Shown here piece after piece: positions 6,712-61,531 of a stretch of 64,000 nucleotides of DNA. The position numbers were made by a program, and so were the translations under genes. The DNA is from an uncultured SAR86 cluster bacterium (GTDB taxonomy: Bacteria; Pseudomonadota; Gammaproteobacteria; Magnimaribacterales; AG-339-G14). Within the stretch, counting starts at the first letter, position 1, and every line of letters starts with the position of its first letter. The notes under the pieces were generated by a model. That model saw only the letters and a program-made list of their open reading frames with translations. It made no database searches and had not been told where the DNA came from. Location: contig CACBTL010000002.1 in the NCBI GenBank assembly GCA_902542145.1, positions 8,170 through 72,169 on the forward strand. The letters run 5' to 3'.

Positions 6712-6777
6712 ATTTTTCTTATGGTTTATAGCTAAAAATTTTAAATCTCAGCAAGAAAGATTGCGATTCTAGAGAAA

Positions 6778-7695
6778 TTAAGCTTTTTTGGCAAGAGCAT
6801 CATCCATAATGCTCTCTAGTAATTCAAAATAGCTAATGCCGGAGAGATGGGATGATTTTGGAACTAGACTTGTTTCCGTCATACCGGGAACCGAGTTAAG
6901 TTCTATAAAGAAATAATCTATGCCATCATCAATAATATCAATGCGGCCCCAATTTTCTGCACCGACAAGTTCATATGCATTAATTACGAGATTGTTCAAA
7001 GTATCCAACCTTTCTGATTCTATCGCGTACTCTAAATATTTTGTCTTATTGGAAATATATTTGGCATCAAAATCATAAAACTCACCTTCTGGAATAATAT
7101 GAATTGGCCTAAGGCATCTTTTATTAATTATCGGTACCGTTATTTCTTTTCCATCTATAAACCTTTCAATTAATACTGAATCATCATATTTTTTAGCTAG
7201 ATTAATTTTTTTTTGAAAATCCTCTTTACCTTCAATGGTGTTATGAAAGGAAATACCGTTAGAAGATCCCTCTAAATTTGGCTTTATTACCCACTTTTCG
7301 AATGAGGATAAATTATCTATTAGAAAGTTTTCCTCATAGATAAAATATTCAGGTGTTTTAATATTGTTTTTCTTCCAAATTTCTTTGGTCTTTATTTTAT
7401 TCATCGTAATTCTGGAAGACTGCGAATTTGATCCAGTAAATACAATCTCATTTTCCTCAAAGAACTTTTGAATTTCTCCATCTTCCCCTCCTCTACCGTG
7501 AAGCAAAATAAAAACTAGATCGAACTTAGAATATAGCTCCTTTTTAAATGCTTCATTTGCAGTTTTGACATCAATTTTTGAAACTTCATAACCGTTTTCT
7601 TTAAGACATTTGTATACCGAATCCCCGCTCTTTAATGAAATGAGTCTTTCCTCTGACCAACCGCCGCATAGTACTGCAATATTTTTTTTTATCAT
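6778..7695 (-). CDS. ddl: D-alanine--D-alanine ligase
   Basis: It has the GGWSEERLISLKSG and ELNSVPGMTETS motifs and sits after murC. Confidence 0.9.
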   Translation of the reverse strand: MIKKNIAVLCGGWSEERLISLKSGDSVYKCLKENGYEVSKIDVKTANEAFKKELYSKFDLVFILLHGRGGEDGEIQKFFEENEIVFTGSNSQSSRITMNKIKTKEIWKKNNIKTPEYFIYEENFLIDNLSSFEKWVIKPNLEGSSNGISFHNTIEGKEDFQKKINLAKKYDDSVLIERFIDGKEITVPIINKRCLRPIHIIPEGEFYDFDAKYISNKTKYLEYAIESERLDTLNNLVINAYELVGAENWGRIDIIDDGIDYFFIELNSVPGMTETSLVPKSSHLSGISYFELLESIMDDALAKKA

Positions 7696-9065
7696 TGATT
7701 TGATATCTTTCTTGCAAGTTCTGAGGTCGTCCCTGCTCCTTGAGTTATGATGACCTCATTTCCAGAGGTCATATTTTCAAGTTTTTCAATTACCTCAGTA
7801 TGATTTTGACAAAATACTACGTTTGAGCCATTTTTTTTTAGAGCATGAAATAGATCTTTGCCTTCATAGCCTTTAATTATCTTTTCGCTTGCAGGATAAA
7901 TATCAAGCAATAGAAGGTTTTCTATATTTGAAAGAGTTTTTATGAATTCATCAAAAAGATCTTTGGTTCGCGTGTATCTATGCGGTTGAAAAACAACAAT
8001 CTTTTTTTTGTTTTTCCATATTTCTGATGCTGTGTCGTAAGAATAATTGATCTCTTTGGGATGATGACCGTAATCATCTACAAGAGTAATCTTTTTTGAA
8101 AAGATATCATGAGAAATAATCTCAAAACGTCTTTCAATTGAGGAGCAAGTTTTGAGCGATTTTTTTATGATAGACACATCAATGTTTTCTTGAATAGCGG
8201 CAATAATCGCAGATGTTGCATTCATTACATTATGTTCACCATGCATTGACATGGAGAAGCTATAATCTTTTTTAACGAAATTATCTTTCAACTTAAAACT
8301 TGTCCCTCCGATGTTTTGTTTTATGTCTTTGATTTGATAGTCGTTATTTTTATCTTTTCCAAAGGAAAATGAATTCCGAGGTATGTTTTTAATAATATTT
8401 TTAATCGTTTGATCATCGCCATTTGCAATTAAGTAGCCTTGAAATGGCAATGAAAGACAAAATTTTTTAAAAGATTTTTTTAAATTGTTAAAGTTATTGC
8501 CATAAGTACCTAAATGATCGTTATCTATATTTGTAACTAAAGCTTTCAGAGGCCTGAGGTTTAAGAAAGATCCATCACTCTCGTCAGCTTCCGCAATGAT
8601 ATGCTCGCCAAGACCTAATTTGGCATTTGATTCAAAAGACTTTACTTTGCCTCCAATGATGTAAGTAGGATCAAGACCTGCCTCGGTGAAAATATGTGCC
8701 ATTATGCAAGTCACGGTTGTTTTTCCATGACTGCCTGCAACCGCAATGCTATTTTTAAGCATCATAAGATTGGCCAACATTTCAGCTCTAGGAATAACTG
8801 GTATGCCCAGAGAAATTGCTTTTTTAAGCTCAATATTTGTTTTTGATATTGCTGATGAAATCACTACAAGATCTTTTTTTAAGACATTATTTACTTTGTG
8901 GCCTTTAAAAATCTTTACCCCTAGATTTTTTAGTCTTTTTGTCACGTTTGTATCCTCGAGATCACTTCCTGAGACAGAATAGTCTTGATTATGAAGAATT
9001 TCTGCAATTCCGCTCATACCTGCTCCACCGATTCCAATTAGATGAATATTTTTTATGCTGGACAT
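7692..9065 (-). CDS. murC: UDP-N-acetylmuramate--L-alanine ligase
   Basis: It has the HLIGIGGAGMSGIAE and GSHGKTTV motifs and is 457 aa. Confidence 0.95.
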   Translation of the reverse strand: MSSIKNIHLIGIGGAGMSGIAEILHNQDYSVSGSDLEDTNVTKRLKNLGVKIFKGHKVNNVLKKDLVVISSAISKTNIELKKAISLGIPVIPRAEMLANLMMLKNSIAVAGSHGKTTVTCIMAHIFTEAGLDPTYIIGGKVKSFESNAKLGLGEHIIAEADESDGSFLNLRPLKALVTNIDNDHLGTYGNNFNNLKKSFKKFCLSLPFQGYLIANGDDQTIKNIIKNIPRNSFSFGKDKNNDYQIKDIKQNIGGTSFKLKDNFVKKDYSFSMSMHGEHNVMNATSAIIAAIQENIDVSIIKKSLKTCSSIERRFEIISHDIFSKKITLVDDYGHHPKEINYSYDTASEIWKNKKKIVVFQPHRYTRTKDLFDEFIKTLSNIENLLLLDIYPASEKIIKGYEGKDLFHALKKNGSNVVFCQNHTEVIEKLENMTSGNEVIITQGAGTTSELARKISNQ

Positions 9066-10135
9066 TAGATATTTAAATTATCAATGATAATTTTCGAGGA
9101 GTCAGTAAATGAATTCTTATTAAGTTGATCATAATAACTTTTTACAGAAGTATTATCTAAAATTGATTCTCTGAGGCTTGATATCAAATTATTAATATCG
9201 GAATCTTGTTCAAAGACCTTTCCAAATCCTCTTTCTTCAAAAAATTTTGCATTTAAAATTTGGTGATTATCAATTGAGTTTGGAATTGGGATTATAAATG
9301 CTGATCTTCTAACCTTGATCAATTCTGATACTGTCAACGCGCCGCCCCTACAAATGACAACATCGCTCCATTCATATGCTTCTCTCATATCATCTATAAA
9401 TTCGCTTATTGTGAACTGGTTATTTACATTATTTTTCTTATAAGCTTCTTGGGTGATTTTTCTATGTTTTAATCCACACTGATGACGTATTTTCAAGCTG
9501 TTCCTATTAATTCCTCCGAGAACTTTTGGAACCAGATGATTTAAAAAATCTGAACCTTGGCTGCCTCCAATTATTAGAAGGTTGTTGAACTGATCAATAT
9601 TTTTTTGTTTTAAACCTAAAAGTTCATCTCGAATAGGATTGCCACTATCAACAAGAAAATTGACTTTAGTTTTATTGAAATAATCAGACGCCTGACCGAA
9701 GCCCAGAAATACTTTATCAAGATATTTTAACTTTGAAAGAATCCTTATTGCAGATCCAGGTATTGAATTTTGCTCTTGTGCATAGATTGTTCTTAAAGGG
9801 AAAAATAAAGCGATCAATGAAGTGTATCCTCCAAAAACAATCATTTGATCATTCTGACTGGAGAAAACTCTATATTTGAAAAAAAATTTCAATCCAGATC
9901 GAAATAGTTTTAGAACTGAAGAAAGTTTGTTAATAAAGCCCTTTCCTCTAAAGCCTACCAAATCATATTCTATAAATTTGATGCCAAGCTTTTTACATAT
10001 ATTCTTCTCAGGTCCTCTGGCTGTGCCAATCCAGATTATGGAGATATCTTTTTTTAATAAATCTCTCGCAATTTGCTCAGCAGGAAATACATGACCTCCT
10101 GTTCCTCCAGCAACTATGAAGAATTTTTTAGAAAT
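9065..10135 (-). CDS. murG: Undecaprenyldiphospho-muramoylpentapeptide beta-N-acetylglucosaminyltransferase MurG; start extended beyond the ORF-track TTG
   Basis: The frame is open upstream of the track start at 9961. It encodes ISKKFFIVAGGTGGHVFPAEQIARDLLKKDISIIWIGTARGPEKNICKKLGIKFIEYDL, then VGFRGKG. The GGTGGH motif is the MurG N-terminal signature. No ATG, GTG or TTG lies between the upstream in-frame TGA and 9961, so I propose ATT 10135..10133 as the start. Confidence 0.8.
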   Translation of the reverse strand: MSKKFFIVAGGTGGHVFPAEQIARDLLKKDISIIWIGTARGPEKNICKKLGIKFIEYDLVGFRGKGFINKLSSVLKLFRSGLKFFFKYRVFSSQNDQMIVFGGYTSLIALFFPLRTIYAQEQNSIPGSAIRILSKLKYLDKVFLGFGQASDYFNKTKVNFLVDSGNPIRDELLGLKQKNIDQFNNLLIIGGSQGSDFLNHLVPKVLGGINRNSLKIRHQCGLKHRKITQEAYKKNNVNNQFTISEFIDDMREAYEWSDVVICRGGALTVSELIKVRRSAFIIPIPNSIDNHQILNAKFFEERGFGKVFEQDSDINNLISSLRESILDNTSVKSYYDQLNKNSFTDSSKIIIDNLNI

Positions 10136-11300
10136 TTTTCCTCCTTGATATCACTTTATGTCTATCTGATTCATTTAATTCAAAATATATTCTTTGAATC
10201 AGTGAAATCAAAATAAAGGTCAAAAATAAATTGGAACCGCCGTAGCTCAAAAAAGGCAAGGTCAGCCCTTTTGTAGGAAGTAGTCCGATAGACACACCGA
10301 TGTTGATAAAAACATGCAACCCAATCAGAGTACCTATGCCATATGCAATAAATGAATTAAACATTTGATTCATTTGTCTTGCTAAACGTCCAATCATAAA
10401 ACATCTTATGACTAAAACTAGAAAAATAAAAATTAAAATTAATCCAAAAAAACTACCAAATTCCTCCAAAATAATTGAAAAAACAAAGTCAGTTTGAGCG
10501 TCTGGCAGTAAATTTAATTTCAACCAACTTTCTCCATATCCAGTGCCGAACCAGTCACCTCTGCCAATAGCAGAAAAAGATCTTGTCAGTTGATATCCTC
10601 CTTCTTGAGCATTTTCCCATGGATTCATAAATGTAAGTATTCTTTGAAATCTCCAAGGAACTAAAAAAATCATCAAAATAAATGTAAAAAAACCTACCAT
10701 GGAGATTGCAATAAAATGAATAATAGGCGCACCCGCGATAAACATGATTGTGAGAGTGACCAAAAAGATAATTGTTGAAGAACCTAAATCTGGCTGAAAT
10801 AAAATTAAGGAAATAAGTGAAACCATTATGAAAATGGGCTTCCAAAAACCTTTCCAATTTGATTTGAATTCTTCTTTCTTCCTGATACAAAAAGATGATA
10901 CATAAATCAATAATGATAACTTGGCTAATTCAGCAGGCTGGAAACTAAAACCAAGGAACCTTATCCACCTCTTTGCTCCGTTTATTTCTGGTGCAAGATT
11001 TGGCACTAAGAGTATCAACAAAAGAAAGAGCGATAGAAAAATAAGATATAAGTCAATATTTCTCCATGTACTCATCTCAAACCTGAATATAAAGAAGAAA
11101 AGAACGAAACCCACCATCAAATTAAATATGTGCCTAATGGTTAACTCGTTAGATGAAATGCTCGAAACCATCAAGATTCCAAAGAAAGCTAAGAAAATAG
11201 ATATTGTTGTTGTTGTGAAGTCGAAATTATCAAATTTAATGTTCCGATCATGACTTCCAAATAAAATTCTATTTACAAAGTTTTGCTTTCTAGCCAACAT
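10128..11300 (-). CDS. ftsW: Peptidoglycan glycosyltransferase / lipid II flippase FtsW (SEDS family)
   Basis: It is a multi-TM protein with the LPTKGLTLPFLSYGGSN motif, and lies between murD and murG. Confidence 0.9.
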   Translation of the reverse strand: MLARKQNFVNRILFGSHDRNIKFDNFDFTTTTISIFLAFFGILMVSSISSNELTIRHIFNLMVGFVLFFFIFRFEMSTWRNIDLYLIFLSLFLLLILLVPNLAPEINGAKRWIRFLGFSFQPAELAKLSLLIYVSSFCIRKKEEFKSNWKGFWKPIFIMVSLISLILFQPDLGSSTIIFLVTLTIMFIAGAPIIHFIAISMVGFFTFILMIFLVPWRFQRILTFMNPWENAQEGGYQLTRSFSAIGRGDWFGTGYGESWLKLNLLPDAQTDFVFSIILEEFGSFFGLILIFIFLVLVIRCFMIGRLARQMNQMFNSFIAYGIGTLIGLHVFINIGVSIGLLPTKGLTLPFLSYGGSNLFLTFILISLIQRIYFELNESDRHKVISRRKNF

Positions 11301-12525
11301 ATTTTTTGATTAATTCTTTGAACTTAGCCCCTCTTTCTTCATAATTTTGAAATTCATCAAAACTTGAACAACCGGGAGAAAATAAGACCAAATCATTTTT
11401 AGTTGAATAATTAATAGCCTCTTTCACAGCTTGAGTCATATTCTCAAGCACGATTGGATTTAACTCTTCTATTTCATTTGAAATCTTTTCTCTGTCCGCA
11501 CCATAAACAAAAACTTTCTTAGTTTTTCTCTTAAGAACCTCCTTAAGTGGTCTAAAACTTAGATCCTTTTTTAACCCCCCCATAATTAAAATAATTTTTT
11601 CATTTTTATATTTATTTATTGCAGCATTAAGTGAATGTGGATTGGTAGATTTAGAGTCATTTATGATGGTGAGGTATTTATTTAAGGAAATATCTTCAAG
11701 GCGATGGGGAGGCGGATTAAAGGAAAGTATTTTCTCCTCAATGGATTTTTTTTTGAGGCCTATGTGTAAAAGAATCCTTTTTACAGCTTCTTGATTATAA
11801 ATTTCATGATCTGTGATCTCAGGCATAATGAAATCTAAATCCAAATCTATGCCCTCAGGTCCAATTTTATAGTTTGAGTTTTCAAATATTCTTTTTTTTA
11901 TTTTTGTGTACTGTTGAAAAGAATCGTGAACATCTAAATGATCAGGAGATATATTTAATAATACAGAAACTAAGCTTGATAATGACTTTGTCCTTTCTAT
12001 CTGAAAAGAAGATACTTCGATTACAAAATAATCCAGTTGATCTTCAATATGATTAAGCACAGGAAAACCATTATTTCCTATACTCTTAACCTTAAGTTCC
12101 AAGGATTTCATGATGTGTTGAAGCAAAGATACTACAGATGTTTTTCCGTTTGTTCCTGTAACAAGAATTGATTTTTTAGCATGAACTTTCAAAAAGAGAT
12201 CTAAGTCTGAAAGGATTTCAATGTTATGAGTATTCAACTTTGTTACTATTTCATGACTGATATCAAATCCAGGACTTACATAACACGATCGAATTTCATC
12301 AAAAGCTATCTCCTTTAGATTAGAAATAATTAGAGGATTTTTACTTTTTTTAAGTAATTCTTTTTTGCAAGGAGGATCACTTCTGGTATCAAAAATAATT
12401 GGCTCTTGTTCAAATTTTATTAAGTAATTAAAAAGAGATAAGCCTGTCTGACCAAGTCCTAAAATAAGTGATCGAGAAGTTTTTTTTGACACTTGGCTAC
12501 CTAAGTCTGAGGGTAGCAAATCCAA
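11290..12525 (-). CDS. murD: UDP-N-acetylmuramoylalanine--D-glutamate ligase
   Basis: It has the ILGLGQTG and GTNGKTS motifs. An alternative GTG start at 12492 lies just after the mraY stop. Confidence 0.9.
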   Translation of the reverse strand: MDLLPSDLGSQVSKKTSRSLILGLGQTGLSLFNYLIKFEQEPIIFDTRSDPPCKKELLKKSKNPLIISNLKEIAFDEIRSCYVSPGFDISHEIVTKLNTHNIEILSDLDLFLKVHAKKSILVTGTNGKTSVVSLLQHIMKSLELKVKSIGNNGFPVLNHIEDQLDYFVIEVSSFQIERTKSLSSLVSVLLNISPDHLDVHDSFQQYTKIKKRIFENSNYKIGPEGIDLDLDFIMPEITDHEIYNQEAVKRILLHIGLKKKSIEEKILSFNPPPHRLEDISLNKYLTIINDSKSTNPHSLNAAINKYKNEKIILIMGGLKKDLSFRPLKEVLKRKTKKVFVYGADREKISNEIEELNPIVLENMTQAVKEAINYSTKNDLVLFSPGCSSFDEFQNYEERGAKFKELIKKYVG

Positions 12526-13579
12526 TAAGAATTAGAATTAATGTAATTATCCAGAATCTCACAATAATCTTTGGTTCTGCCCATCCTGATAATTCAAAAT
12601 GGTGATGCAAAGGAGCCATCTTGAATACCCTTTTACCAGTTAATTTGTATGAAGTAACCTGGATCATGACAGATAACGTCTCGGCAACAAAAACTCCTGC
12701 CATTATCGCAAATACTATTTCTTGCCTTATCATAACCGCAATTGCTCCCAGTGCTGCCCCTAATGAAAGAGAGCCTACATCCCCCATAAAGACTTGAGCA
12801 GGATAAGTATTGAACCATAGAAATCCAATTCCAGACCCTACAATAGCACCACAAAATACAAGCATTTCACCTGATAGTGGTAAATATGGAATATTGAGAT
12901 AATCTGAAATGATTATGTTTCCAGATGAATATCCAAGAACTCCTAAAGCAGCTGCAATCATTACTGAAGGCATAATTGCTAGACCATCTAAGCCATCTGT
13001 AAGATTCACCGCGCTACTTGAGCCAACAATTACAAAATAAGAAAAGAAAATAAAAAATAAACCTAATGGCAAAGAAAAATCTTTGAAAAAAGGAATTATT
13101 AAGCTCGTCTCAAGGGGATTTGTAGAATATGTATAAAAAATTATTAAGCCGATAAAAGCTGATAGAGACTGCCAAAAAAACTTCTGCCTACTTGTAAGTC
13201 CATTGCTTGACTGAGTTTTTAGTTTAGTTAAATCATCTATCCAGCCAATTACCCCAAATGAAACTGTCATAAATAATACCAACCACAGGTACTTATTTGA
13301 TAAGTCCCCCCAACAAAAAACTGAAAATACTACAGCTGCTAAAATCAGCAGCCCCCCCATTGTTGGAGTTCCTTCTTTAACAAGATGTCTTTTGGGTCCT
13401 TCTTTTCTAATATATTGATTAAACCTTTCCATTTTCAAAAAATTAATGAACCAATTTCCAAAAGATAGGCAAAAAATCAATGAAGTTAGAGTGGCTAAAA
13501 TTGCTCTAAAAGTAAGATAATTGAAAATCCTCAAGGGACCATAGCTTTCAGCTAGAATTTCTAAAATAGGTAAAAACAT
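12497..13579 (-). CDS. mraY: Phospho-N-acetylmuramoyl-pentapeptide transferase
   Basis: It has the NLTDGLDGLA and APLHHHFELSGW motifs and is 360 aa. Confidence 0.95.
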   Translation of the reverse strand: MFLPILEILAESYGPLRIFNYLTFRAILATLTSLIFCLSFGNWFINFLKMERFNQYIRKEGPKRHLVKEGTPTMGGLLILAAVVFSVFCWGDLSNKYLWLVLFMTVSFGVIGWIDDLTKLKTQSSNGLTSRQKFFWQSLSAFIGLIIFYTYSTNPLETSLIIPFFKDFSLPLGLFFIFFSYFVIVGSSSAVNLTDGLDGLAIMPSVMIAAALGVLGYSSGNIIISDYLNIPYLPLSGEMLVFCGAIVGSGIGFLWFNTYPAQVFMGDVGSLSLGAALGAIAVMIRQEIVFAIMAGVFVAETLSVMIQVTSYKLTGKRVFKMAPLHHHFELSGWAEPKIIVRFWIITLILILIGFATLRLR

Positions 13580-14817
13580 TATTTAAAAATATTCATGCAA
13601 TCTTCCATTTTAACTGATCTAGATGCCTTAAATAATATGGCAGTATTTTTACTCAATAAAGATCCGATCTTTTCTTCTGCATTCGCAATATTTATTTTGA
13701 CTACATTCTCCTTCGTGAGTTCAAATTTGGAGTTAAATAAAAAAACGTTATCAAATCTCTCACAGGCTTCATCGATTATTTTTTTCATTTCTTGCTGAAA
13801 GTCTTTACCCAGTTCTTTCATATCACCTATAACACAAATTTTATTTTCTTTATCAGTAGAATCTAAGACTCTAAATGCCTCTTTAAATGAATCAGGATTT
13901 GCATTGTAAGTATCATCAATTATTAAAACACCCTTAGAATTATAGCCTTGCTCTGTCCTAGATGGGACGACAACATCTTTTGATAAATTATATATTTGAT
14001 CAAAAGAGATATTTTCTATGCCTAAACTTACTAGAATAGCTTCTACACACTTACTGTTTGATTTTTTTGCATTTAGTTCATCACTAAAAAAGGATCTGAT
14101 CTTTTTATCATGAGACTTAGCATTAAACTCACTGAGATGAGCATTAATATCTGGGAAGATACAAGTTCCTTGAAGTAAAACATTTTTAAAAATATCAGAT
14201 TTCTCTTGTGCAACTCCCTCAAGATTTATTAATTTTTCTAGGTGAGCTTTTCCAATTGATGTGATGACTCCTACTTCGGGCTGCAAAATTGACGACAATT
14301 CATTTATTTCACCAAAGTCATTCGTTCCTATCTCAAAAATTCCAAATTTATGATGTTTTTTTAATTCTAGGAGACTAAAGCATAATCCGTAAAAATTATT
14401 CCAGTTTCCTGGTGATACATAAATTTGAGATGGATCAAATTTGTTGGATAAAAGATGGCTCAATAGCAATTTAGTCGAAGTTTTACCGTTACTTCCAGTG
14501 ATACCTACAACTTTACCTTCAAACTTTTCTCTTTGGTATTTAGCTAAAAAAGATAAACATTCATTTGTTGAATTAACGCCTAAAATTTTTTCATCTTGAG
14601 GATAATTTTTTTCAGAAATAACAAAAGAGGCTCCCCTATCCAATGCTTCATCAATAAAGTCATGTCCATTGGAATTAGGCCCCTTTAAAGCAAGAAAACA
14701 ATCACCTTTTGAAATTTTTCTAGAGTCTGTAACTATTTTTGAGGATACAAATTCTTTCTTAGGTTTCTCAAGATTTAATTTAGCGGCTAATATTTGGTTT
14801 GACAATTCAAATAGCAT
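13579..14817 (-). CDS. murF: UDP-N-acetylmuramoyl-tripeptide--D-alanyl-D-alanine ligase
   Basis: It has the GITGSNGKTSTK motif and the Mur ligase architecture. Its position is conserved. Confidence 0.9.
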   Translation of the reverse strand: MLFELSNQILAAKLNLEKPKKEFVSSKIVTDSRKISKGDCFLALKGPNSNGHDFIDEALDRGASFVISEKNYPQDEKILGVNSTNECLSFLAKYQREKFEGKVVGITGSNGKTSTKLLLSHLLSNKFDPSQIYVSPGNWNNFYGLCFSLLELKKHHKFGIFEIGTNDFGEINELSSILQPEVGVITSIGKAHLEKLINLEGVAQEKSDIFKNVLLQGTCIFPDINAHLSEFNAKSHDKKIRSFFSDELNAKKSNSKCVEAILVSLGIENISFDQIYNLSKDVVVPSRTEQGYNSKGVLIIDDTYNANPDSFKEAFRVLDSTDKENKICVIGDMKELGKDFQQEMKKIIDEACERFDNVFLFNSKFELTKENVVKINIANAEEKIGSLLSKNTAILFKASRSVKMEDCMNIFK

Positions 14818-16246
14818 TTTTAAAACTCATCACTACTTCAAGATCACTAAAATCTTTTCTTAATCCATTCCCAAATTCTTGATAATTTTCATTTCCCTTT
14901 CCTGCAATTAATAATGCGGAACCGGGTTTACTATTAATAAGTGATTCAAGTGATTCAAGAATAGCTTCTTTTCTATCAAAAATTACATTTATATTCTTTG
15001 ATGAACACTCTGATAAAATATCTTCAACAATTTTTTCAGGATCTTCACTCCTAGGATTATCATTGGTAACGAAAACCTGATCAGATAAATTTTCTGCTAT
15101 TCTTCCCATCTTTGACCTTTTAGATCTATCCCTATCACCGCCACATCCAAATAGACAAATTAAATTTCCAGAATGTGTGCTTCTTAAAGATTTTAAACTT
15201 GTATCCAATGCATCAGGAGTATGTGCAAAATCAATAAATACATCTCTTCCTTCAAAATCTATTTTTTGATTTCTTCCATCAGGCAGGCTAAGGTCAAAAA
15301 AATCTATTCTTGATAAATTAACGTCTTGGTTTGCAACCTTAAACAAAAGAAGAGCACAAACCAGATTTGAGAAATAATGGTCTCCTTGGAAGTTAACACT
15401 AATTTTTTTCGGCATGATATCGTCTGAATCCAATAAAAATTTATTTGATGAGCTTTTATGTATGAATACATCAGCATCTTTGTTATGAAATGAATATGAA
15501 TAAGAATTTTTGTATTTTTGTTTAAGTTTTGTACCTAAGTAATTGTCTTCATTAAACACATATCCTTCTTGCGAAAAGTCATCGGAATCAAAAAAAGATT
15601 CTTTTATGTCTGAATACTTCTCCATATTGCCGTGGTAATCAAGATGGTCTTCAGAGAAACTTGTTAATCCTTTAAATTTGATTTCGATATCTCCGATCCT
15701 TTTTTGATGTATTGCATGAGATGAAACCTCTAGCAAAAAATTCTCAATATTGTGTCCACTTGATATTTCTAAAAACCTGTAAAGTTTGAAGATATCAGGA
15801 GTTGTCATATTTGAAGATCGTAACTCGAGGCCTGAACCTCCATTTTCAATAGAGTTAAAAAAAGATACCTTCATATTTAGCTGTTCATGTAATTGTTTGA
15901 GAAAATGAATTGTGCTGGTCTTACCATTTGTACCAGTTATACCAAATATCTTTTTAACTTGATTATACGCATAGGCCTTATTTGCTAGATCTACTAGTTT
16001 TTCTTCTAACCCAGAAACATGAATTATGTTTCTATTATCATTGGCATGATGTATGCCAGAAAGAATGGCTACTGCTCCTTTATCAAAGGCATGATCTATA
16101 TATTTATTTCCATCTCTTTTGGAAGAATTTTTTAATGCAACAAAAATATCTCCTGGATCTATGTCATTTGAATTGATGCATAATTTTTTAAATTGAATAT
16201 CACTTTTTAATTTATTGCTGTCTAATAAATTCTTTAGACTTTTCAT
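14807..16246 (-). CDS. murE: UDP-N-acetylmuramoyl-L-alanyl-D-glutamate--2,6-diaminopimelate ligase
   Basis: It has the GITGTNGKTST and DNPRSEDP motifs. Confidence 0.9.
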   Translation of the reverse strand: MKSLKNLLDSNKLKSDIQFKKLCINSNDIDPGDIFVALKNSSKRDGNKYIDHAFDKGAVAILSGIHHANDNRNIIHVSGLEEKLVDLANKAYAYNQVKKIFGITGTNGKTSTIHFLKQLHEQLNMKVSFFNSIENGGSGLELRSSNMTTPDIFKLYRFLEISSGHNIENFLLEVSSHAIHQKRIGDIEIKFKGLTSFSEDHLDYHGNMEKYSDIKESFFDSDDFSQEGYVFNEDNYLGTKLKQKYKNSYSYSFHNKDADVFIHKSSSNKFLLDSDDIMPKKISVNFQGDHYFSNLVCALLLFKVANQDVNLSRIDFFDLSLPDGRNQKIDFEGRDVFIDFAHTPDALDTSLKSLRSTHSGNLICLFGCGGDRDRSKRSKMGRIAENLSDQVFVTNDNPRSEDPEKIVEDILSECSSKNINVIFDRKEAILESLESLINSKPGSALLIAGKGNENYQEFGNGLRKDFSDLEVVMSFKNAI

Positions 16247-17871
16247 GAGGAAGCAAAAATTGATTTAAAAATATTTGAAAAGATTGGAGCTGCAACATCG
16301 GAGCCTCCTGAAACATCATTTTTTGGTTCTTGGACCATTATTGCCAGTAAATATCTCTCACTATTTTTTTCTATGAATCCTACAAATAGAGCATTTATAG
16401 AGTCTTCATCATATCCTTGCTGTTTAGAAATGAAGCTTGTCCCTGTTTTTCCTCCAACAACTCCATCTTTTACTTTGGCTAGTTTTCCAGTCCCATTATT
16501 CACAGTATGGATTAAAATATTTTTTATCTTATCAGTGGTTTCCTTTTTAAGAATTCTTCTTCTTATTTCATTATTTTCTGATGAAATAATCTTTAGATTT
16601 GCTTCGATACCTTCGTTTAAAATTCCAGTATATGCTTTTGCAATGTGAAGCAAAGTTGTCTGGAGACCATACCCATAACATAAACTAACTAAACCTCTCA
16701 AGGAAATATTCTGTTCCCCAGGCAAAAATCCCTCTCTATGATTTAAAAACATGTCACTAAAGTACTCTCCGATTCCAAAAGAACGTATTCCTGATATTAC
16801 TCTTGATTTGTTCATTTGAGAGCAAATTTTTACAGTTCCTACATTACTTGATTTAGCTATAACATCGCTTACTGAAAGAATTCCATAATTTCTAAAATCC
16901 TCTGTTCTGTAATCCTCAAATTCAACCCATCCAGGATTAGTATCAATCAAGGTATCTTCGTTAACTAATTCATCGTCTAGAGCTAAAGAAATACTAAGAG
17001 GTTTTAAAACAGAACCGGGTTCCAAAAGAGAAATCGATGCCTTGTTTGTCACTAAAGAAATATCTGATAAAGATTTTCTATCGTTGGGATTAAAGCTAGG
17101 ATAATTAGTTATTGCTAAAATCTCTTCAGTATCTAGATCAATCATTATTGCGGAAGCATTACTAGCATTGTTTTCAATTACAGCCCTTTTCAACTCATCA
17201 AAAACAATAAATTGATAATCTGAATCAATAGATAACTTAATTAAGTCGCCATCCTTCTCAGGGAGAATGACTTCTTCAATAACTTTTCCATTACCATCTC
17301 TCTTTAAATCTATTCTCCCATCTGAGCTATCAAGACTTTTCTGAAAGCTGAGCTCTATACCTTGAAGACCATCATTATTTATATCAGTGATCCCAATTAG
17401 TTGAGAAAAAGCTTCTCCTTCGGGATAATTTCTGTAGTATTTTTCATCAAAAACCAGTCCTTGAATTTTTTCCTTTTTAAGTGCCTCTACTTTTTCCCTA
17501 TTTACTTTTTTAGAAATTTGAATGAATTTAAGCCTCTGATTAGATGATCTTTCTCTTAAATTTTGCTCCTCGATATTCAATAAATTGGAAATAAATTTTA
17601 TCTCGTCTGGTTTGTACGAAAAATAATTAAGGTCTATTCCAATATCGTAAAAAATAATATCTTCAGCCAATATTCGATCATTTCTATCGACTATCTTTCC
17701 TCGTGATGACTTTATGACTTTACTTTGTGAAATTCGATTATCAATTTTATCAAATGAAAAGTCTGCCTCAGTTATTTGGAAATATATTAATCTTACGAAG
17801 AGGAGTAAAAAAAGCACGGGAAGAAAAAACCAGAGAACAAGTTCTCTGGTTTTTTCCGTTTGATGGCTCAA
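16243..17871 (-). CDS. ftsI: Peptidoglycan D,D-transpeptidase FtsI (PBP3)
   Basis: It has an N-terminal TM segment and the SVLK (SxxK), SSN and KTGTS motifs. The start is TTG, 6 nt after the ftsZ stop. Confidence 0.9.
   Translation of the reverse strand: MSHQTEKTRELVLWFFLPVLFLLLFVRLIYFQITEADFSFDKIDNRISQSKVIKSSRGKIVDRNDRILAEDIIFYDIGIDLNYFSYKPDEIKFISNLLNIEEQNLRERSSNQRLKFIQISKKVNREKVEALKKEKIQGLVFDEKYYRNYPEGEAFSQLIGITDINNDGLQGIELSFQKSLDSSDGRIDLKRDGNGKVIEEVILPEKDGDLIKLSIDSDYQFIVFDELKRAVIENNASNASAIMIDLDTEEILAITNYPSFNPNDRKSLSDISLVTNKASISLLEPGSVLKPLSISLALDDELVNEDTLIDTNPGWVEFEDYRTEDFRNYGILSVSDVIAKSSNVGTVKICSQMNKSRVISGIRSFGIGEYFSDMFLNHREGFLPGEQNISLRGLVSLCYGYGLQTTLLHIAKAYTGILNEGIEANLKIISSENNEIRRRILKKETTDKIKNILIHTVNNGTGKLAKVKDGVVGGKTGTSFISKQQGYDEDSINALFVGFIEKNSERYLLAIMVQEPKNDVSGGSDVAAPIFSNIFKSIFASS
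17825..17854 (-). terminator. Intrinsic-terminator-like perfect palindrome (A-run, 9-bp GC-containing stem, U6) inside codons 6-15 of ftsI, 24-53 nt downstream of the ftsZ stop
   Basis: The sense-strand RNA reads AAAAA-CCAGAGAAC-UU-GUUCUCUGG-UUUUUU. It has 14 consecutive complementary positions, symmetric on both strands. Confidence 0.45.
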
Positions 17872-17877
17872 AGAAAA

Positions 17878-19005
17878 CTAATCTATTTGTTTTTTAACGA
17901 ACGATGGAATATCTAGATATTCTGAATCCATTAAATCACTAGACGAAACCTTTTTAACTTCCCTAGAAGAATGAGAAATATCTGGCTTCGGGAGGATGGG
18001 TTCAACAGATTCAAATTCAAAGGTATTTTTAGGCATCTTTTTAGATGCATTTCCACCAAGGCCAGTTGCGACAATTGTAACCTTTATATCTGCTCCCATA
18101 GAATCATCAAATGCCACACCATGAATAATTGTTGCATCTTGTGCAGCAAATTCTTTTACCAAGGCAAGAACTTCCTCAACTTCACCCGTTTTCATATCCG
18201 GTCCAGCAGTGATGTTAACAAGAACTCCTTTTGCATTTTCCAGATTGATATCTTCTAATAATGGACTTCCAACGGCTGCAGAAGCTGCCTCTTTTGCCCT
18301 GCTTGGCCCATTTGCAATTCCCGTCCCCATCATAGCTGTTCCTTTTTCTGACATTACTGTTTTAACATCTTGAAAATCAACATTAACGAGTCCAGTTTGT
18401 GTGATGATATCTGATATACCTCTAACAGCTCCTAATAGAACATCGTTTGCTTGCTTGAAGGCATCAAGAAGACTATGTTCTCTCCCAAGAACTTCCAATA
18501 ATTTTTGGTTAGGGATTGCGATTAGTGAATCAACTTCATCTGTAAGCTCTTTTAAGCCAACATCTGCAATCTGATCTCGCATTTCAAGCTCTAATGGCTT
18601 GGTGACTACTGCAACTGTCAAAGCACCTATTTCTTTGGCAGCTCTAGCAACAATTGGGGCTGCACCAGTTCCAGTTCCGCCGCCCATTCCTGCTGCAACA
18701 AAAACCATATCTGAACCCTCAAGCAAGGTTTTAATTCTTTCAAGATCATCAAGTGCAGCATCTCTTCCAACCTCAGGCTTCCCTCCTGCTCCAAGACCAT
18801 TAGAAATACCGGTTCCAAGAGTAATTTTTAATTCTGCTAAATTGGTATCAAGCGCTTGCTCATCTGTATTAGCACAAATCATTTGCACGCCTTCGATACC
18901 GCTTTCAACCATATGGTTTACTGCGTTTCCTCCAGCTCCACCTACTCCTACTACTCTTATAAGAGCAGATGATTTAGTTTCATTTTCTACAACGGTCCAG
19001 TTCAT
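17878..19005 (-). CDS. ftsZ: Cell division GTPase FtsZ
   Basis: It has the GVGGAGGNAV and GGGTGTGAAP tubulin signatures and the conserved C-terminal peptide DIPSFVKKQ. Confidence 0.97.
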   Translation of the reverse strand: MNWTVVENETKSSALIRVVGVGGAGGNAVNHMVESGIEGVQMICANTDEQALDTNLAELKITLGTGISNGLGAGGKPEVGRDAALDDLERIKTLLEGSDMVFVAAGMGGGTGTGAAPIVARAAKEIGALTVAVVTKPLELEMRDQIADVGLKELTDEVDSLIAIPNQKLLEVLGREHSLLDAFKQANDVLLGAVRGISDIITQTGLVNVDFQDVKTVMSEKGTAMMGTGIANGPSRAKEAASAAVGSPLLEDINLENAKGVLVNITAGPDMKTGEVEEVLALVKEFAAQDATIIHGVAFDDSMGADIKVTIVATGLGGNASKKMPKNTFEFESVEPILPKPDISHSSREVKKVSSSDLMDSEYLDIPSFVKKQID

Positions 19006-19022
19006 AGTCCCTCCTTATTAAA

Positions 19023-20252
19023 TTAGAAATTGTTTTGGATCCATCTAAAAGCTTTGTTAAAAATGTTCTTATCTTTCATGAATAGATAGTTCATATGGTC
19101 TTCTTCTTGTGATTTTTGGCTATATAAGACCAACCCTACAGCAGTTGCATATATTGGATTCCTTAAAATATCGCTCAATCCTATCAATCCTGATGGTGAA
19201 CCAATACGAACAGGAGCATTAAAAACTTCCTCTGCTAATTGGGCTACTCCTTCCATCCTGGATGTTCCACCCGTGATTACAATCCCGGCGGGAATATTAT
19301 TTTCTAAAGAAGATAAGTTAAGTTTTTGTTTTATTAAGCCAAAAATATCCATATACCTTTGCTCTATTACACTGGCTAGGGCCATTCTTGAGAAAATTTT
19401 ATTTTTTCTTCCTGCCATACCTGAAACCTCAATTGTTTCATTTTCATGAATTATGGAGCTTGAAGCACAGCCATACTTCTTCTTGAGTTCTTCTGCTTGG
19501 ATACTTGGAGTTTGAAGTGCTCTAGCAATGTCTTTAGTAATATGATCGCCTGAAGTTGGAATATTAGCAGTATGACTTATTGCTCCATTTTGAAAAACTG
19601 CAACGTCTGAAGTTCCGCCGCCCATGTCAATTAAACACGTTCCCAACTCTTTTTCATCTTCTGATAGGACAGAGTAACTTGACGCTAGTTGCTCCAAAAC
19701 AAATCCTTCAACACTAATACCACAAGCTTTCATACAGGAGGATATGTTTTGAGCAGAGTTCCTGTTACAGGTGACTAGATGAACTTTGGTCTCCAGTCTA
19801 ACGCCAGCCATTCCGAAAGGTTCTTTAATGCCATTTTGTTGATCAATAATATAGTCTCTCGGCAGAACATGAAGCAATTGAGAGTCATCTGGAATAGCAT
19901 ATGCTTGTGCAGCAGTGATGACTCTATCAACATCACTAACTTTGACTTTTTTATCTTTAATTCCTACAACACCTTCAGAATTTAAACCATTGATATGACC
20001 TCCACTTATACCTACAAAAGCTGATGTAACTTGTTTACCAGACATCAATTCTGCATCATTTACCGCGGATTCTATTGCGGATACAGTTGATTCAATATCA
20101 ACAATCACTCCGTTTTTTAAACCTTGAGAAGTTTGGCTTCCTAAGCCGATAACTCGTAACTCGTGATCAACATATTCGGCGATTAGACACACGACTTTCG
20201 AGGTGCCTATGTCAATACCTACCCTGATGTTATTTGATCCGTTGCTAGCCAT
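19023..20252 (-). CDS. ftsA: Cell division protein FtsA
   Basis: It has the actin-fold motifs GIDIGTSKV and DMGGGTSDVAVF and is 409 aa. Confidence 0.95.
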   Translation of the reverse strand: MASNGSNNIRVGIDIGTSKVVCLIAEYVDHELRVIGLGSQTSQGLKNGVIVDIESTVSAIESAVNDAELMSGKQVTSAFVGISGGHINGLNSEGVVGIKDKKVKVSDVDRVITAAQAYAIPDDSQLLHVLPRDYIIDQQNGIKEPFGMAGVRLETKVHLVTCNRNSAQNISSCMKACGISVEGFVLEQLASSYSVLSEDEKELGTCLIDMGGGTSDVAVFQNGAISHTANIPTSGDHITKDIARALQTPSIQAEELKKKYGCASSSIIHENETIEVSGMAGRKNKIFSRMALASVIEQRYMDIFGLIKQKLNLSSLENNIPAGIVITGGTSRMEGVAQLAEEVFNAPVRIGSPSGLIGLSDILRNPIYATAVGLVLYSQKSQEEDHMNYLFMKDKNIFNKAFRWIQNNF

Positions 20253-20258
20253 ATTAAT

Positions 20259-20810
20259 TTAATCCCTAAACCCAATTGCTCCTTTGTTTTGATACCTTAA
20301 ATCTAAATATGAAAAGGTATCTTTTATGTTGTTAAAGTATTCGCTCTTCAGAAATGTTTTAAGGTTTTCTAATTGATTTTCTATTTTTGATTTATTCATG
20401 CGAAACCTTAAACCGGAATTATCCTCTAAGGTCATTAAATCAAACTCTTCAATTAGAATTTTATTAAGAACCAGGTTAGACCCTTTCAAAATTTGATTGA
20501 GTTCAAAAAAATACCTTAGGACAAAGTCAATATTATTTCTGTTTGCTTCAATATTGACTAATTTCAAATCTTCTTTGGTTTTAAATTTGAGGAGGCGACC
20601 AGATTGGGTCAGTATCTGGTCTTTTCCCCAAAAAACAAGCGGTTGATATTCTTTCACATACAATCTTTTCATTGGCCAAGAATTGACTTCCTTAGATGAT
20701 TCAACAAAGTTAGGATTATCTTTTGAAAATAAAGGTTTTGGATCTTCAAAAACTTCGGATAAAAGAAAGGTTGAAGAAAATATCATTACAATAAAAGTTA
20801 AGAATTTCAC
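20259..20810 (-). CDS. ftsQ: Short FtsQ-like cell division protein
   Basis: The TM segment sits right at the N-terminus, with no cytoplasmic tail. The C-terminal YLDLRYQNKGAIGF resembles the FtsQ (v)DLRY.ng.av motif. It lies immediately upstream of ftsA. At 183 aa it is shorter than typical FtsQ (about 270 aa in E. coli). Confidence 0.65.
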   Translation of the reverse strand: MKFLTFIVMIFSSTFLLSEVFEDPKPLFSKDNPNFVESSKEVNSWPMKRLYVKEYQPLVFWGKDQILTQSGRLLKFKTKEDLKLVNIEANRNNIDFVLRYFFELNQILKGSNLVLNKILIEEFDLMTLEDNSGLRFRMNKSKIENQLENLKTFLKSEYFNNIKDTFSYLDLRYQNKGAIGFRD

Positions 20811-21085
20811 TTTTCTGCTCCTTGAATCAAAACAAGGGATTCAGGCAAAATCATTCCATATTCATCAACCGTTTTTTCTTTTACTGAATTGTGAGAAGTT
20901 AGATTTAATATCTTATTCTTGAGATAAACTGATTCTTCATCTAGTTTTGACTTATAGTCGTTTAAAAGATACTTTTCTGAGACTAATTGCTTGTGACTAG
21001 CATTCTTATTCATCACTAAGTGAGAACTAAAAAAAGTAGCAATCAGAGATCCTAAAATAAATATCAATATCATTTGATTAAACAT
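20807..21085 (-). CDS. ftsL: Cell division protein FtsL
   Basis: It is 92 aa, with a single TM segment followed by a heptad-like region. The call rests on its position after rsmH. Confidence 0.65.
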   Translation of the reverse strand: MFNQMILIFILGSLIATFFSSHLVMNKNASHKQLVSEKYLLNDYKSKLDEESVYLKNKILNLTSHNSVKEKTVDEYGMILPESLVLIQGAEK

Positions 21086-21932
21086 TTTTTATCGCAATTC
21101 TCATTATTGCGCTCCTTGATCTCGGATTAGACTTAATTTCATTAATTGTTGGCTTAATAGGCTTTCCTTGCTTTTTTAGATTAAGATTTTTTGCTTCTTC
21201 TGATCTAAGAAAGTTTTTAGCTATTCTGTCTTCTATGGAATGAAAGCTTATGATGATTAATTTTCCATTTTGCTTGAGTAGGCAAGCTGCCAATTTAAAT
21301 CCATTGATCATCTCTTCAATTTCATTATTTATATGCATTCTTATTGCTCTGAATACATTAGTTGCTGGATGCCGTTTTTGTGAACTGCTATATTTCTCAA
21401 TAAATAAAGAAAGCTGTGCTGTGCTTTTAAACTTGGTCTTTTTTCTTGATTCAACAATTTTCCTGGCATAAAACCTAGATTTTCGCTCCTCGCCTAAATG
21501 AAATAAAACATCACTTATTTCCTTCTCTGTTGCAGTATTTATCCATTGCTCTGCTGTGATTTCCTCTCCTTTGTCCATTCTCATATCAAGAGGGCCGTCC
21601 TTTTGAAAGCTAAATCCTCTTTCTGGATCATCTAGTTGCATGGAAGAATTCCCTAGATCAAACAAGATACCATCTAGTTTCGTATCTAAACTTTCAATTT
21701 TTGAAAAATTTAGATTTTTAAAATGAAATCTTTTGTCTTTTATTTTTTGTGAATACGAGACAGTTTCTTTGTCTCTGTCTATTGCGATCAATCGGCCATT
21801 ATCGTTAAGGTTTTCTAAAATCTTTTTTGAATGTCCCCCTAAGCCAAAAGTACAATCTAAATAAGTGCCGGCAGGATCATGAACTAAATTTTTAATAGTT
21901 TCGTTGATCATTACTGGCTGATGAGTGAACAT
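21078..21932 (-). CDS. rsmH: 16S rRNA (cytosine1402-N4)-methyltransferase
   Basis: It has the HQPVM, DCTFGLGGHS and SFHSIEDRI motifs. Confidence 0.95.
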   Translation of the reverse strand: MFTHQPVMINETIKNLVHDPAGTYLDCTFGLGGHSKKILENLNDNGRLIAIDRDKETVSYSQKIKDKRFHFKNLNFSKIESLDTKLDGILFDLGNSSMQLDDPERGFSFQKDGPLDMRMDKGEEITAEQWINTATEKEISDVLFHLGEERKSRFYARKIVESRKKTKFKSTAQLSLFIEKYSSSQKRHPATNVFRAIRMHINNEIEEMINGFKLAACLLKQNGKLIIISFHSIEDRIAKNFLRSEEAKNLNLKKQGKPIKPTINEIKSNPRSRSAIMRIAIKNV

Positions 21933-21936
21933 GATG

Positions 21937-22416
21937 CTAAAAAGGAATCTCCTGAACGTTAGAAGGTAAGTCTATATCTAATTTTTCACCTTGAATTTGT
22001 TGACCTTTCTCTTTTGCAAGCCAATTTTTTTCGTTCCATACTTCAAATTTCTGACCCATACCGATCAAAGATACTTTTTCTTTAACTTCTAATTGAGCAT
22101 AATCTCTTAAGCTTTGAGGAATAAGTATTTGCATCCGATCATTGACTTCAAAATCAATTAAATTTGCATATCCAAGAAAATTCCACTGAATAGATCTAAT
22201 TTTTGAATCTAGGCCTGATAAGTTTTCAAAAGCTTTTGATATGGTTTTCCATAAACTGCCTGGATAAATTCTTAAGGAAGGATATTGTGGGTCCCTAGTT
22301 ATGACCAAAGAACCCTCTGAAACCTCTTTTAAAGCTTCTTTATACTTTGCTGGCATCGCAATTCGTCCTTTAGAATCCAATGCCAAACTACTGTATCCAT
22401 AAAGTCCTATAGCCAT
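21937..22416 (-). CDS. mraZ: Transcriptional regulator MraZ
   Basis: It has duplicated SpoVT/AbrB-like halves (LDSKGRIAMPAKYKEAL and MQILIPQSLRDY). ATG 22416 is preferred over the track's TTG at 22419. Confidence 0.9.
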   Translation of the reverse strand: MAIGLYGYSSLALDSKGRIAMPAKYKEALKEVSEGSLVITRDPQYPSLRIYPGSLWKTISKAFENLSGLDSKIRSIQWNFLGYANLIDFEVNDRMQILIPQSLRDYAQLEVKEKVSLIGMGQKFEVWNEKNWLAKEKGQQIQGEKLDIDLPSNVQEIPF

Positions 22417-22434
22417 CAAACAAGACCCCTTTTA

Positions 22435-22469
22435 CACACATATATACACAAATGTGCACTTCAGCACAC
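22435..22469 (-). promoter_or_regulatory. Putative MraZ operator: four direct GTGNN repeats with an exact 10-bp period
   Basis: The reverse strand reads GTGTG-ctgaa-GTGCA-cattt-GTGTA-tatat-GTGTG, with repeat starts at 22469, 22459, 22449 and 22439. It lies between the putative -10 element and the mraZ start. Confidence 0.5.
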
Positions 22470-22496
22470 TTTAGACATTTGTATAATCTCTGTCAA
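22468..22496 (-). promoter_or_regulatory. Putative sigma-70 promoter of the mraZ/dcw operon
   Basis: The -35 element is TTGACA (22496..22491). A 17-nt spacer follows, then the -10 element TAAAGT (22473..22468). The -10 overlaps the first GTG repeat. Confidence 0.45.
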
Positions 22497-22540
22497 GAGG
22501 TTTAGTCCCAAAATATAAGGGTTTTAAGGATATTTATTAT

Positions 22541-22875
22541 GTGAGCTGACCTATAAGCCGGGTTCTGTAATTGGTAATCATTCCTCTGGGATTTATGTTG
22601 CCATAAACCTCTAGCAACCTACCCTGACCTAATGCGAGAAACATTAACAGGTCTCTATTTGGTCTTGCTCCTGATGGGGTTTGCCAACTACTTTTGTTAC
22701 CAAAAGTCTGGTGCGCTCTTACCGCACCTTTTCACCCTTACCTTTTAACACAAGGCGGTTTATTTTCTGTTGCACTATCCGTTACTTCGCAGCACCCAGA
22801 CGTTATCTGGCATCATTCTCTATGGAGCCCGGACTTTCCTCTATCTATTTGACAGCGATTACCCGGTCAGCTCGA
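22541..22875 (-). ncRNA. rnpB: RNase P RNA, bacterial type A
   Basis: The reverse strand contains GAGGAAAGTCCGGGCTCCATAG, AGTGCAACAGAAA, GGTAAGGGTGAAAAGGTGCGGTAAGAGCGCACC and ACAGAACCCGGCTTATAGGTCAGCTC. P1 pairs GAGCTGACC with GGTCAGCTC. The ends are approximate, within a few nt. Confidence 0.93.
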
Positions 22876-61369: not shown

Positions 61370-61379
61370 ATATAAAAGA

Positions 61380-61394
61380 AGCCCATAAAGGGCC
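61380..61394 (-). terminator. Weak hairpin between tRNA-fMet and rimP (possible attenuator or processing site)
   Basis: The sense RNA is GGCCC-UUUAU-GGGCU, followed by UCUUUUAU. It has only 4 GC pairs plus a wobble pair. Confidence 0.25.
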
Positions 61395-61401
61395 CAAAAA
61401 A

Positions 61402-61478
<77 letters not shown>

Positions 61479-61496
61479 ATATTCTTAAACTGCGCG

Positions 61497-61525: not shown

Positions 61526-61531
61526 GTAAAT

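Follow-up and report, generated by a model that had tools for sequence, protein, structure and literature searches.

A perfect palindrome lies directly downstream of the cell division gene ftsZ, inside the first codons of the essential gene ftsI, in a 64-kb window (the whole stretch of DNA analyzed here) from a bacterium of the SAR86 cluster, Gammaproteobacteria (≈33% G+C). The palindrome forms a stable hairpin, is rare in the window, sits just past the ftsZ stop, is under selection at the nucleotide level in its close relatives, and originated within a single clade. We tentatively interpret it as a partial intrinsic (Rho-independent) terminator, an intra-operon attenuator that would uncouple expression of ftsZ from that of ftsI and the mur genes behind it.

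Structure of the hairpin

On the minus strand, the junction between ftsZ and ftsI reads GAT TAG UUUUCU UUG AGC CAU CAA ACG GAA AAA ACC AGA GAA CUU GUU CUC UGG UUU UUU CUU CCC. An initial annotation of this DNA had reported a perfect terminator-like palindrome in the first ftsI codons, and the palindrome is indeed there, with two 16-nt arms (17823–17838 and 17841–17856; 100% complementary) in place of the shorter repeat first described (17825–17854). The minus-strand RNA is G-A6-CCAGAGAAC-UU-GUUCUCUGG-U6-C, in which the U6 run is as annotated and the A run comprises six bases rather than five. Because a 2-nt loop cannot close, the core is an 8-bp stem with four G-C pairs and a CUUG tetraloop, not the 9-bp stem with five G-C pairs that had been proposed. 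The core stem by itself folds at −9.8 kcal/mol. When the A6:U6 pairs and a closing G:C pair are included, it becomes a 15-bp helix of −18.9 kcal/mol (z-score, −6.4), and none of 200 shuffled sequences was as stable.

The core agrees with what is expected of an intrinsic terminator (a stem of ≈5–14 bp with G-C pairs and a loop of 3–8 nt), and the U6 tract (17829–17824) follows the stem directly; the tail recorded at this site in our terminator census (see below) was TTTCTTCCCG. Relative to the first nucleotide of the ftsZ stop, the extended helix starts after 24 nt and the core stem after 31 nt. The helix begins 15 nt past the ftsI TTG, its first pair being at +16 from the first base of that codon. 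The palindrome codes for E-K-T-R-E-L-V-L-W-F-F, which corresponds to the cytoplasmic tail of FtsI and the start of its membrane helix; this peptide and the distance from the ftsZ stop had been given correctly. (A small 5-bp AU-rich hairpin, UUUGA GCCA UCAAA, is also predicted across the ftsI TTG at 17860–17873 on the minus strand; it is conserved in the clade and very weak.)

The hairpin is truly coding, as had been claimed. The TTG at 17871 is the true ftsI start, since it is invariant among close relatives (clade A, defined below) and serves as the start codon in two clades further away, and database FtsI proteins begin with MSHQTEKTRELVLWFF. The GTG at 17817 was ruled out as an alternative start, being GTA, ATA or TTA in relatives. 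Two recoding mechanisms were also rejected. In the window's clade, ftsZ and ftsI share one reading frame, and the ftsZ stop lies in frame three codons upstream of the TTG (TAG UUU UCU UUG), which raises the possibility of stop-codon read-through to an FtsZ-FtsI fusion; however, the shared frame is found only in clade A, while the TAG-N-TTG junctions of clades B and C place the genes in different frames. The A-rich run followed by a stem-loop in coding sequence resembles dnaX-type −1 frameshift signals, but the frame GAA AAA ACC does not fit X XXY YYZ, there is no 5–9-nt spacer, and the −1 frame ends ≈28 codons on.

Rarity of the hairpin in the window

The palindrome exceeds every other perfect inverted repeat of the window in length. 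From base composition, a perfect repeat with 16-nt arms and a short spacer is expected ≈6 × 10⁻⁴ times per 64 kb, by estimate. In a sliding 40-nt fold over ±2.4 kb, it reached −21.1 kcal/mol, compared to about −13 to −17 kcal/mol for the best of the 73 other zones, making it the strongest hairpin in that region. It occurs as a single copy in 64 kb, even with up to three mismatches allowed.

A standard terminator scan omits the palindrome, because the A and U runs are paired with each other in that scan, so that no tail remains. We therefore used a census of our own, which scored hairpins with U-rich tails on both strands of the whole window, with shuffled windows as a control. The palindrome ranked first on both strands, at −13.3 kcal/mol on the minus strand and −11.5 kcal/mol on the plus strand (with a T5 tail), the latter being the second-best terminator-like match in the window. 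Only eight sites reached −8 kcal/mol or lower, and shuffled windows averaged 0.15 sites at or below −12 kcal/mol. The census found no other terminator-like site within the division and cell wall (dcw) gene cluster to which ftsZ and ftsI belong, and the 66 nt between ddl, its last gene, and rpsF (6712–6777, minus strand) contain no terminator-like structure (fold z-score, +0.45). The initial remark that such hairpins are rare here is borne out, and even the end of the cluster has none.

In Rfam 15, no family matched positions 16000–20000 at its gathering score, with only sub-threshold chance hits; over the whole window, the matches at gathering score were RNase P RNA and four tRNAs. A repeat of the repetitive extragenic palindromic (REP) or bacterial interspersed mosaic element (BIME) type was ruled out, since such repeats occur in many copies, mostly between genes, while the palindrome is single copy and coding. 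A LexA-like or other operator was likewise rejected, as no motif known to us matches the palindrome.

Conservation among close relatives

One scan of genomes, one of metagenomes and two protein look-ups yielded 23 loci with 89–98% nucleotide identity, which we refer to as clade A. All 23 have the same stem, A6 tract and U6 tract. Variation was measured in an alignment of ftsZ and ftsI from 20 clade-A sequences (2763 nt), in which third codon positions are variable in 49% of cases. In the stretch running from −21 to +61 relative to the ftsZ stop, this holds for only 1 of 27, and the longest invariant run of the entire alignment contains the hairpin (Table 1). The invariant region around the junction extends back through the ftsI start codon and the spacer into the end of ftsZ; position 17877 varies between T and A in this alignment and position 17872 is C in two loci (L098 and L099).

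Within the palindrome, all 10 degenerate third positions are fixed, for which the naive probability is ≈10⁻³. The sole variable base is 17838, in the loop, where G is replaced by A (Val to Ile) or by T (Val to Phe). The stem is therefore more constrained than the protein, since only a loop base varies, and does so nonsynonymously. These comparisons are good evidence that selection in clade A acts on the nucleic-acid structure of the hairpin.

The second-longest invariant run of the same alignment (38 nt) lies within ftsZ, at about codons 41–53 (18848–18885, minus strand). It is overlapped by a sub-threshold Rfam hit to Bacilli-1 (18820–18879) and by a promoter-like site (18851–18824).

Table 1. 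Elements of the ftsZ–ftsI junction and genes used as landmarks.
Feature	Position	Strand	Remarks
Full perfect palindrome (two 16-nt arms, 2-nt spacer)	17823–17856	−	Inverted-repeat search, fold
A6 tract, 5′ of core stem	17850–17855	−	Within codons GAA AAA ACC; complementary to U tract; invariant
Core-stem 5′ arm, CCAGAGAAC	17841–17849	−	Codons aCC AGA GAA Ctt
Effective tetraloop CUUG	17838–17841	−	Fold
Core-stem 3′ arm, GUUCUCUGG	17830–17838	−	Codons GTT CTC TGG
U6 tract directly 3′ of stem	17824–17829	−	Phe-Phe codons, start of FtsI transmembrane helix; predicted transcript release zone
Longest invariant run (47 nt)	17819–17865	−	+15 to +61 from ftsZ stop
ftsI start codon TTG	17869–17871	−	Invariant in clade A; also start in clades B and C
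Spacer UUUUCU (6 nt), ftsZ stop to ftsI start	17872–17877	−	No Shine-Dalgarno-like purine run
ftsZ (375 amino acids)	17878–19005	−	NCBIfam TIGR00065 ftsZ, E = 2e-115; translation; stop TAG 17880–17878
ftsI, PBP3-type transpeptidase (542 amino acids)	16243–17871	−	NCBIfam PBP2/FtsI models, E = 2e-84 and 6e-73
mraZ	21937–22419	−	
ddl	6778–7695	−	

Distant clades and origin of the hairpin

The dcw cluster of the window (6778–22419) is entirely on the minus strand, in the order mraZ-rsmH-ftsL-like-ftsQ-like-ftsA-ftsZ-ftsI-murE-murF-mraY-murD-ftsW-murG-murC-ddl. The ftsL-like open reading frame (ORF) encodes 92 amino acids, the ftsQ-like ORF is short, and the ftsI stop overlaps the murE start. In this order, ftsQ-ftsA-ftsZ are placed between ftsL and ftsI instead of after ddl; ddl comes last, followed by rpsF, and murB and lpxC are not in the cluster. 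Our literature searches found neither this SAR86 dcw order nor the ftsI hairpin described.

Outside clade A, the identity of FtsI homologues falls from at least 91% directly to 45% or less. Wherever a SAR86-like locus includes sufficient upstream DNA (FtsI identity, 99% to 37%), ftsZ directly precedes ftsI, and three distant loci inspected in full have the order mraZ-rsmH-ftsL-ftsQ-ftsA-ftsZ-ftsI-murE-murF-mraY-murD. Because this adjacency is common to all sampled loci, the rearranged junction is ancient and SAR86-wide rather than recent.

The structures at the junction differ considerably between clades (Table 2). When folding energies were compared in sliding zones, the junction took top ranks in clades A and C only; in clades B, B′ and group II its rank ranged from about the top 10% to the median. 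The clade C helix lies in ftsI codons 6–22 (5016–5065 in locus L016; ACAAGCAAGUAUAGAGAAUUAA / UUGGUUCUUUAUAUUUUGCUUGU), and is also present in L025, L027, L033, L039, L043, L044 and L049; it has 9 of 49 columns variable, against about half elsewhere. The A6/U6 terminator shape is found in the window's own clade only. Aligning the junction in relatives, as suggested in the initial annotation, gave a divided result, with stem, A6 and U6 kept in the close loci and the canonical shape missing in clades B, B′ and C and weak in group II.

Table 2. The ftsI start region in distant SAR86 clades.
Clade	FtsI identity	ftsI start	Structure	U tract	Energy rank
B	43–46%	TAG-N-TTG	6–7-bp core CAGAGA/UCUCUG, −7.8 kcal/mol	None	3–35 of 41–73 zones, mostly 10–35 of 73
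B′	≈39–40%	TTG	CTC replaced by ATA, no hairpin	None	About median
C	40–43%	TTG	Different 22-bp helix, −21.9 kcal/mol, z-score −8, from +16	None conserved	0–4 of 37–73 zones
Group II	37–40%	Shine-Dalgarno + ATG	Peptide RILYSSGRIVFIQ; AU-rich 8-bp stem, −6.1 kcal/mol	U5	≈7–18 of 73

The FtsI motif K[YT]RELx[LVI]W is kept in clades whose hairpin is weak or absent. The substitutions that build the terminator shape are specific to clade A: ACC (Thr) for TAC or TAT (Tyr), TTT TTT (Phe-Phe) for the Ile-Val/Ile of clade B, and GAA for AAT. Clade A extended an older 6-bp core into the terminator shape in place, with the codons coming first. Since the motif predates the hairpin and clade-specific codons made the shape, evolution in place is indicated, not import with ftsQAZ; the earlier suggestion of a relic terminator that had travelled with those genes to a rearrangement junction is not supported, the junction itself being ancient.

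In clades B and C, the ftsI start lies 1 nt after the ftsZ stop (L015 and L016, at about 4997–5003), as TAGTTTG, TGATTTG or TAATTTG, and in more distant clades ftsI has a Shine-Dalgarno (SD) sequence (GGAG or AGGA) and ATG. The SD-less TTG close to the ftsZ stop in clades A, B and C suggests coupling by termination and reinitiation of translation.

A proposed partial terminator within the operon

If the hairpin acts as a partial terminator, RNA polymerase would pass ftsZ and then transcribe the 8-bp stem, the CUUG loop and the U6 tract. A ribosome finishing ftsZ would halt at the TAG, 31 nt before the core stem. A ribosome reaches ≈13 nt past its codon, so its front edge would fall short of the hairpin, which, being beyond that reach, would be free to fold in the nascent RNA. 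With the hairpin uncovered and folded, part of the transcripts would be released at about 17822–17826, and only read-through transcripts would include ftsI and the mur genes. Combined with an ftsI start that is TTG and lacks an SD, such release would give a high ratio of FtsZ to FtsI and Mur proteins. (The hairpin sits inside ftsI, and ribosomes translating ftsI could melt the helix later.)

We infer both that the hairpin terminates transcription and that it does so only partially. An attenuator was one of the two readings offered in the initial annotation, and the context of the hairpin makes it plausible. Because the ftsI start precedes the hairpin, any ftsI mRNA must read through it, and ftsI would therefore lack a private promoter; termination would then have to be partial. 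Promoter-like sites downstream of the hairpin (17809–17781 and 17744–17717) are at chance level. The translation signals point in the same direction as the proposed attenuation: ftsZ is preceded by a strong SD (AAGGAGG-5-ATG), while ftsI has a TTG and no visible SD, and these features point to FtsZ being made in far larger amounts than FtsI. In Escherichia coli, FtsZ is far more abundant than FtsI.

The location within a gene is consistent with the compactness of the genome. Where genes converge, their ends touch or share a few bases (24793/24795, 29634/29635, 37180–37189 and 42813–42816), which leaves little room for intergenic signals; with almost no intergenic space available, the signal would have been written into the first 17 codons of ftsI.

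Several observations weigh against a terminator. Clades B, B′ and C share the gene order and lack a canonical terminator at this site, and group II has only a weak one. The main doubt arises from clade C, in which a long, conserved helix starts at +16 without a U tract: if one function is common to the clades, it rests on the helix and not on the U tract. Even in clade A, the palindrome continues symmetrically beyond the A and U tracts to a closing G:C pair that a terminator does not need, and the invariance of A6 and U6 is weak evidence, as TTT, AAA and GAA are presumably favored codons at ≈33% GC. Counts of base pairs in clades A and B gave non-significant covariation in tests of low power, and A×C mismatches were about as numerous as wobble pairs, which therefore do not decide between the strands. 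In group II, pair counts showed no covariation, with TAT-to-TAC changes uncompensated in four of five cases, and the stem of that group may simply follow from its conserved peptide, YSSGRIVFI. The theme shared by the clades may thus be a role that depends on the helix, such as processing, an exonuclease barrier, a translational throttle or a reinitiation roadblock, and the terminator shape might be an addition made in clade A or even a side effect.

Alternative explanations

The first alternative is that the helix acts after transcription, either as a site of RNase III-type cleavage in ftsI codons 6–17 or as a barrier to 3′-to-5′ exonucleases once the RNA has been cut further downstream, allowing ftsZ RNA to outlive that of ftsI and the mur genes. 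Intercistronic stabilizing hairpins and RNase III sites are known to set differential expression within operons. Clades A and C, which are independent of each other, have long, conserved helices of different sequence at the same place, both with synonymous conservation, and the prolongation of the clade-A palindrome as a helix, rather than as a U tail alone, is also in line with such a role, as is the missing U tract in clade C. However, 15 bp is short compared to classical RNase III substrates of ≈20 bp (the clade C helix has 22 bp), and clades B, B′ and group II have weak stems or none. Moreover, a hairpin followed by U6 in ribosome-free nascent RNA of clade A would be expected to cause some termination anyway. 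We consider a purely post-transcriptional role possible, though unlikely.

A role in translation of ftsI is less probable still. The helix at +16 would either throttle FtsI synthesis or act as a roadblock that holds the post-termination ribosome for re-initiation at the SD-less TTG. That start is 6 nt past the ftsZ stop in clade A and 1 nt in clades B and C, as in termination-reinitiation coupling. The first paired base is at +16 in both clades with strong helices, A and C, which is the edge of a ribosome with TTG in the P site, and the invariant block reaches back through the start codon and spacer into ftsZ; group II, which has SD and ATG, has only a weak stem. On the other hand, the +16 coincidence is drawn from two clades, the stem in clade B starts at about +24 to +27 and in the other clades at +5 to +18, and structure near a start codon usually lowers initiation. 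Nor would a translational role account for the U6/A6 terminator shape. The specific version in which the helix stops a ribosome sliding from the ftsZ stop, with TTG in the P site, and so permits reinitiation without an SD has, in our estimate, a slimmer chance than translational roles as a whole. It would be a bacterial counterpart to the downstream-hairpin effect of eukaryotic scanning, and we know of no bacterial precedent for a positive positioning role of structure near a start codon. A roadblock helix may also double as terminator RNA.

About as improbable as a translational role in general is that the hairpin has no dedicated function, being a by-product of the conserved N-terminal FtsI peptide in an AT-rich genome, with its invariance resulting from constraints on initiation or from a low local mutation rate. 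The core AGAGAA...CUCUGG does derive from residues R-E...L-W that are conserved across clades, the group II hairpin shows no covariation beyond its peptide, and the invariant run within ftsZ means that strong synonymous constraint is not unique to the junction. Against this stand the low chance expectation for such a repeat, the fixation of every degenerate third position of the palindrome in an alignment where nearly half vary, and the tolerance of nonsynonymous change at the loop base only. Furthermore, gene starts are normally selected against structure, yet the strongest hairpin of the surrounding region is found precisely here.

Finally, it is very unlikely that the palindrome acts as DNA, as a binding site for a dimeric protein or as a bidirectional terminator directed mainly against antisense transcription into ftsZ: although the repeat is perfect on both strands, scores highly on the plus strand in the census, and has a promoter-like site ≈400 nt upstream on that strand (17401–17429; 10/12 matches), the minus strand carries every gene between 114 and 23734, so that no plus-strand gene needs a terminator, promoter-like sites in the window are no commoner than in shuffles (51 vs. 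60), the palindrome is within coding sequence and far from any promoter to regulate, and no operator motif known to us fits it.

Comparison with known systems

The partial terminator that we favor would belong to a mechanism class that is familiar and not unprecedented; the unusual feature is its complete overlap with the first 17 codons of the essential ftsI. E. coli has intra-operon attenuators such as that between rplL and rpoB and the terminators after metY, upstream of rimP-nusA-infB. As in those cases, the SAR86 hairpin and U tract follow a highly expressed gene and precede genes needed at a lower level, for which read-through is required. The E. coli elements lie in intergenic spacers, whereas the SAR86 hairpin is wholly within essential coding sequence, 15 nt past the start codon, and its termination activity is a prediction. 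Stable helices between cistrons of high and low expression are also found in the Rhodobacter puf operon, in malEFG (REP) and in phage T7 early RNA, as intercistronic stabilizing hairpins or RNase III sites. The helices of clades A and C resemble these in being stable and in separating a high- from a low-expression cistron; unlike them, the 15-bp helix of the window is single copy and lies inside coding sequence.

E. coli Term-seq work describes widespread 3′ ends within ORFs and premature terminators that can be regulatory (PMC7815308). Those ends were mapped by experiment and are often dependent on Rho or small RNAs, unlike the SAR86 element, which was recognized by sequence comparison and would serve the 3′ end of the upstream gene. 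E. coli and Burkholderia cenocepacia have dcw clusters with a main promoter upstream of mraZ, with ftsZ close to the end and with a single predicted terminator, which follows lpxC; no internal one is predicted (PMC7761207). The SAR86 cluster has the same gene set and the same need for high FtsZ relative to the other products, but its only strong terminator-like site is internal, right after ftsZ, and none follows ddl. An internal terminator directly after ftsZ would fit the rearranged gene order of SAR86.

If the terminator reading is true, a marine bacterium with a streamlined genome balances FtsZ, its most abundant division protein, against scarce wall enzymes by means of a terminator embedded in the coding sequence of the essential gene that follows. 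Its U tract would double as codons for a membrane helix, a clear case of dual coding under genome compaction. The hairpin accompanies an order-wide rearrangement of an otherwise very conserved cluster that was unreported in the literature searched. The proposal also matters for field studies that use SAR86 ftsZ transcript levels as an index of growth (PMC13349992).

Other features of the window

Two other hairpins found in the census deserve mention. On the minus strand at 61379–61618, secG is followed by tRNA-Leu(GAG), tRNA-Met(CAT), a hairpin with a U-rich tail (GGGCCCUUUAUGGGCUU CUUUUAU) and then rimP-nusA-infB. This hairpin (61379–61395, between tRNA-Met and rimP) indicates that the organism uses the hairpin-and-U-tail type of signal, which speaks for the terminator reading at ftsI, and the genes are laid out as in the E. 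coli metY-nusA-infB operon, which has attenuating terminators. Third in the terminator ranking of the window is a hairpin at 61880–61905 (minus strand), 30–55 nt into secG and right after the overlapping tpiA stop; like the palindrome in ftsI, it falls within the opening codons of a downstream gene for a membrane protein.

Within the dcw cluster, the murG ORF (9065–10127, minus strand) is only 298 amino acids long and matches the murG model from position 63 onward, with a 166-nt gap between it and ftsW; its start may be mis-set, or the gene may be 5′-truncated or frameshifted. A class A RNase P RNA gene (22538–22874, minus strand; 322 bits) is flanked by rsmI and mraZ and immediately precedes the promoter region of the dcw cluster. 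Upstream of mraZ (22420–22500, minus strand), a promoter-like sequence, TTGACA-17-TAAAGT, is followed by GTGTG/TGTGT repeats and a small hairpin (GTGTGCTGAAGTGCAC), and these may be operator repeats for MraZ.

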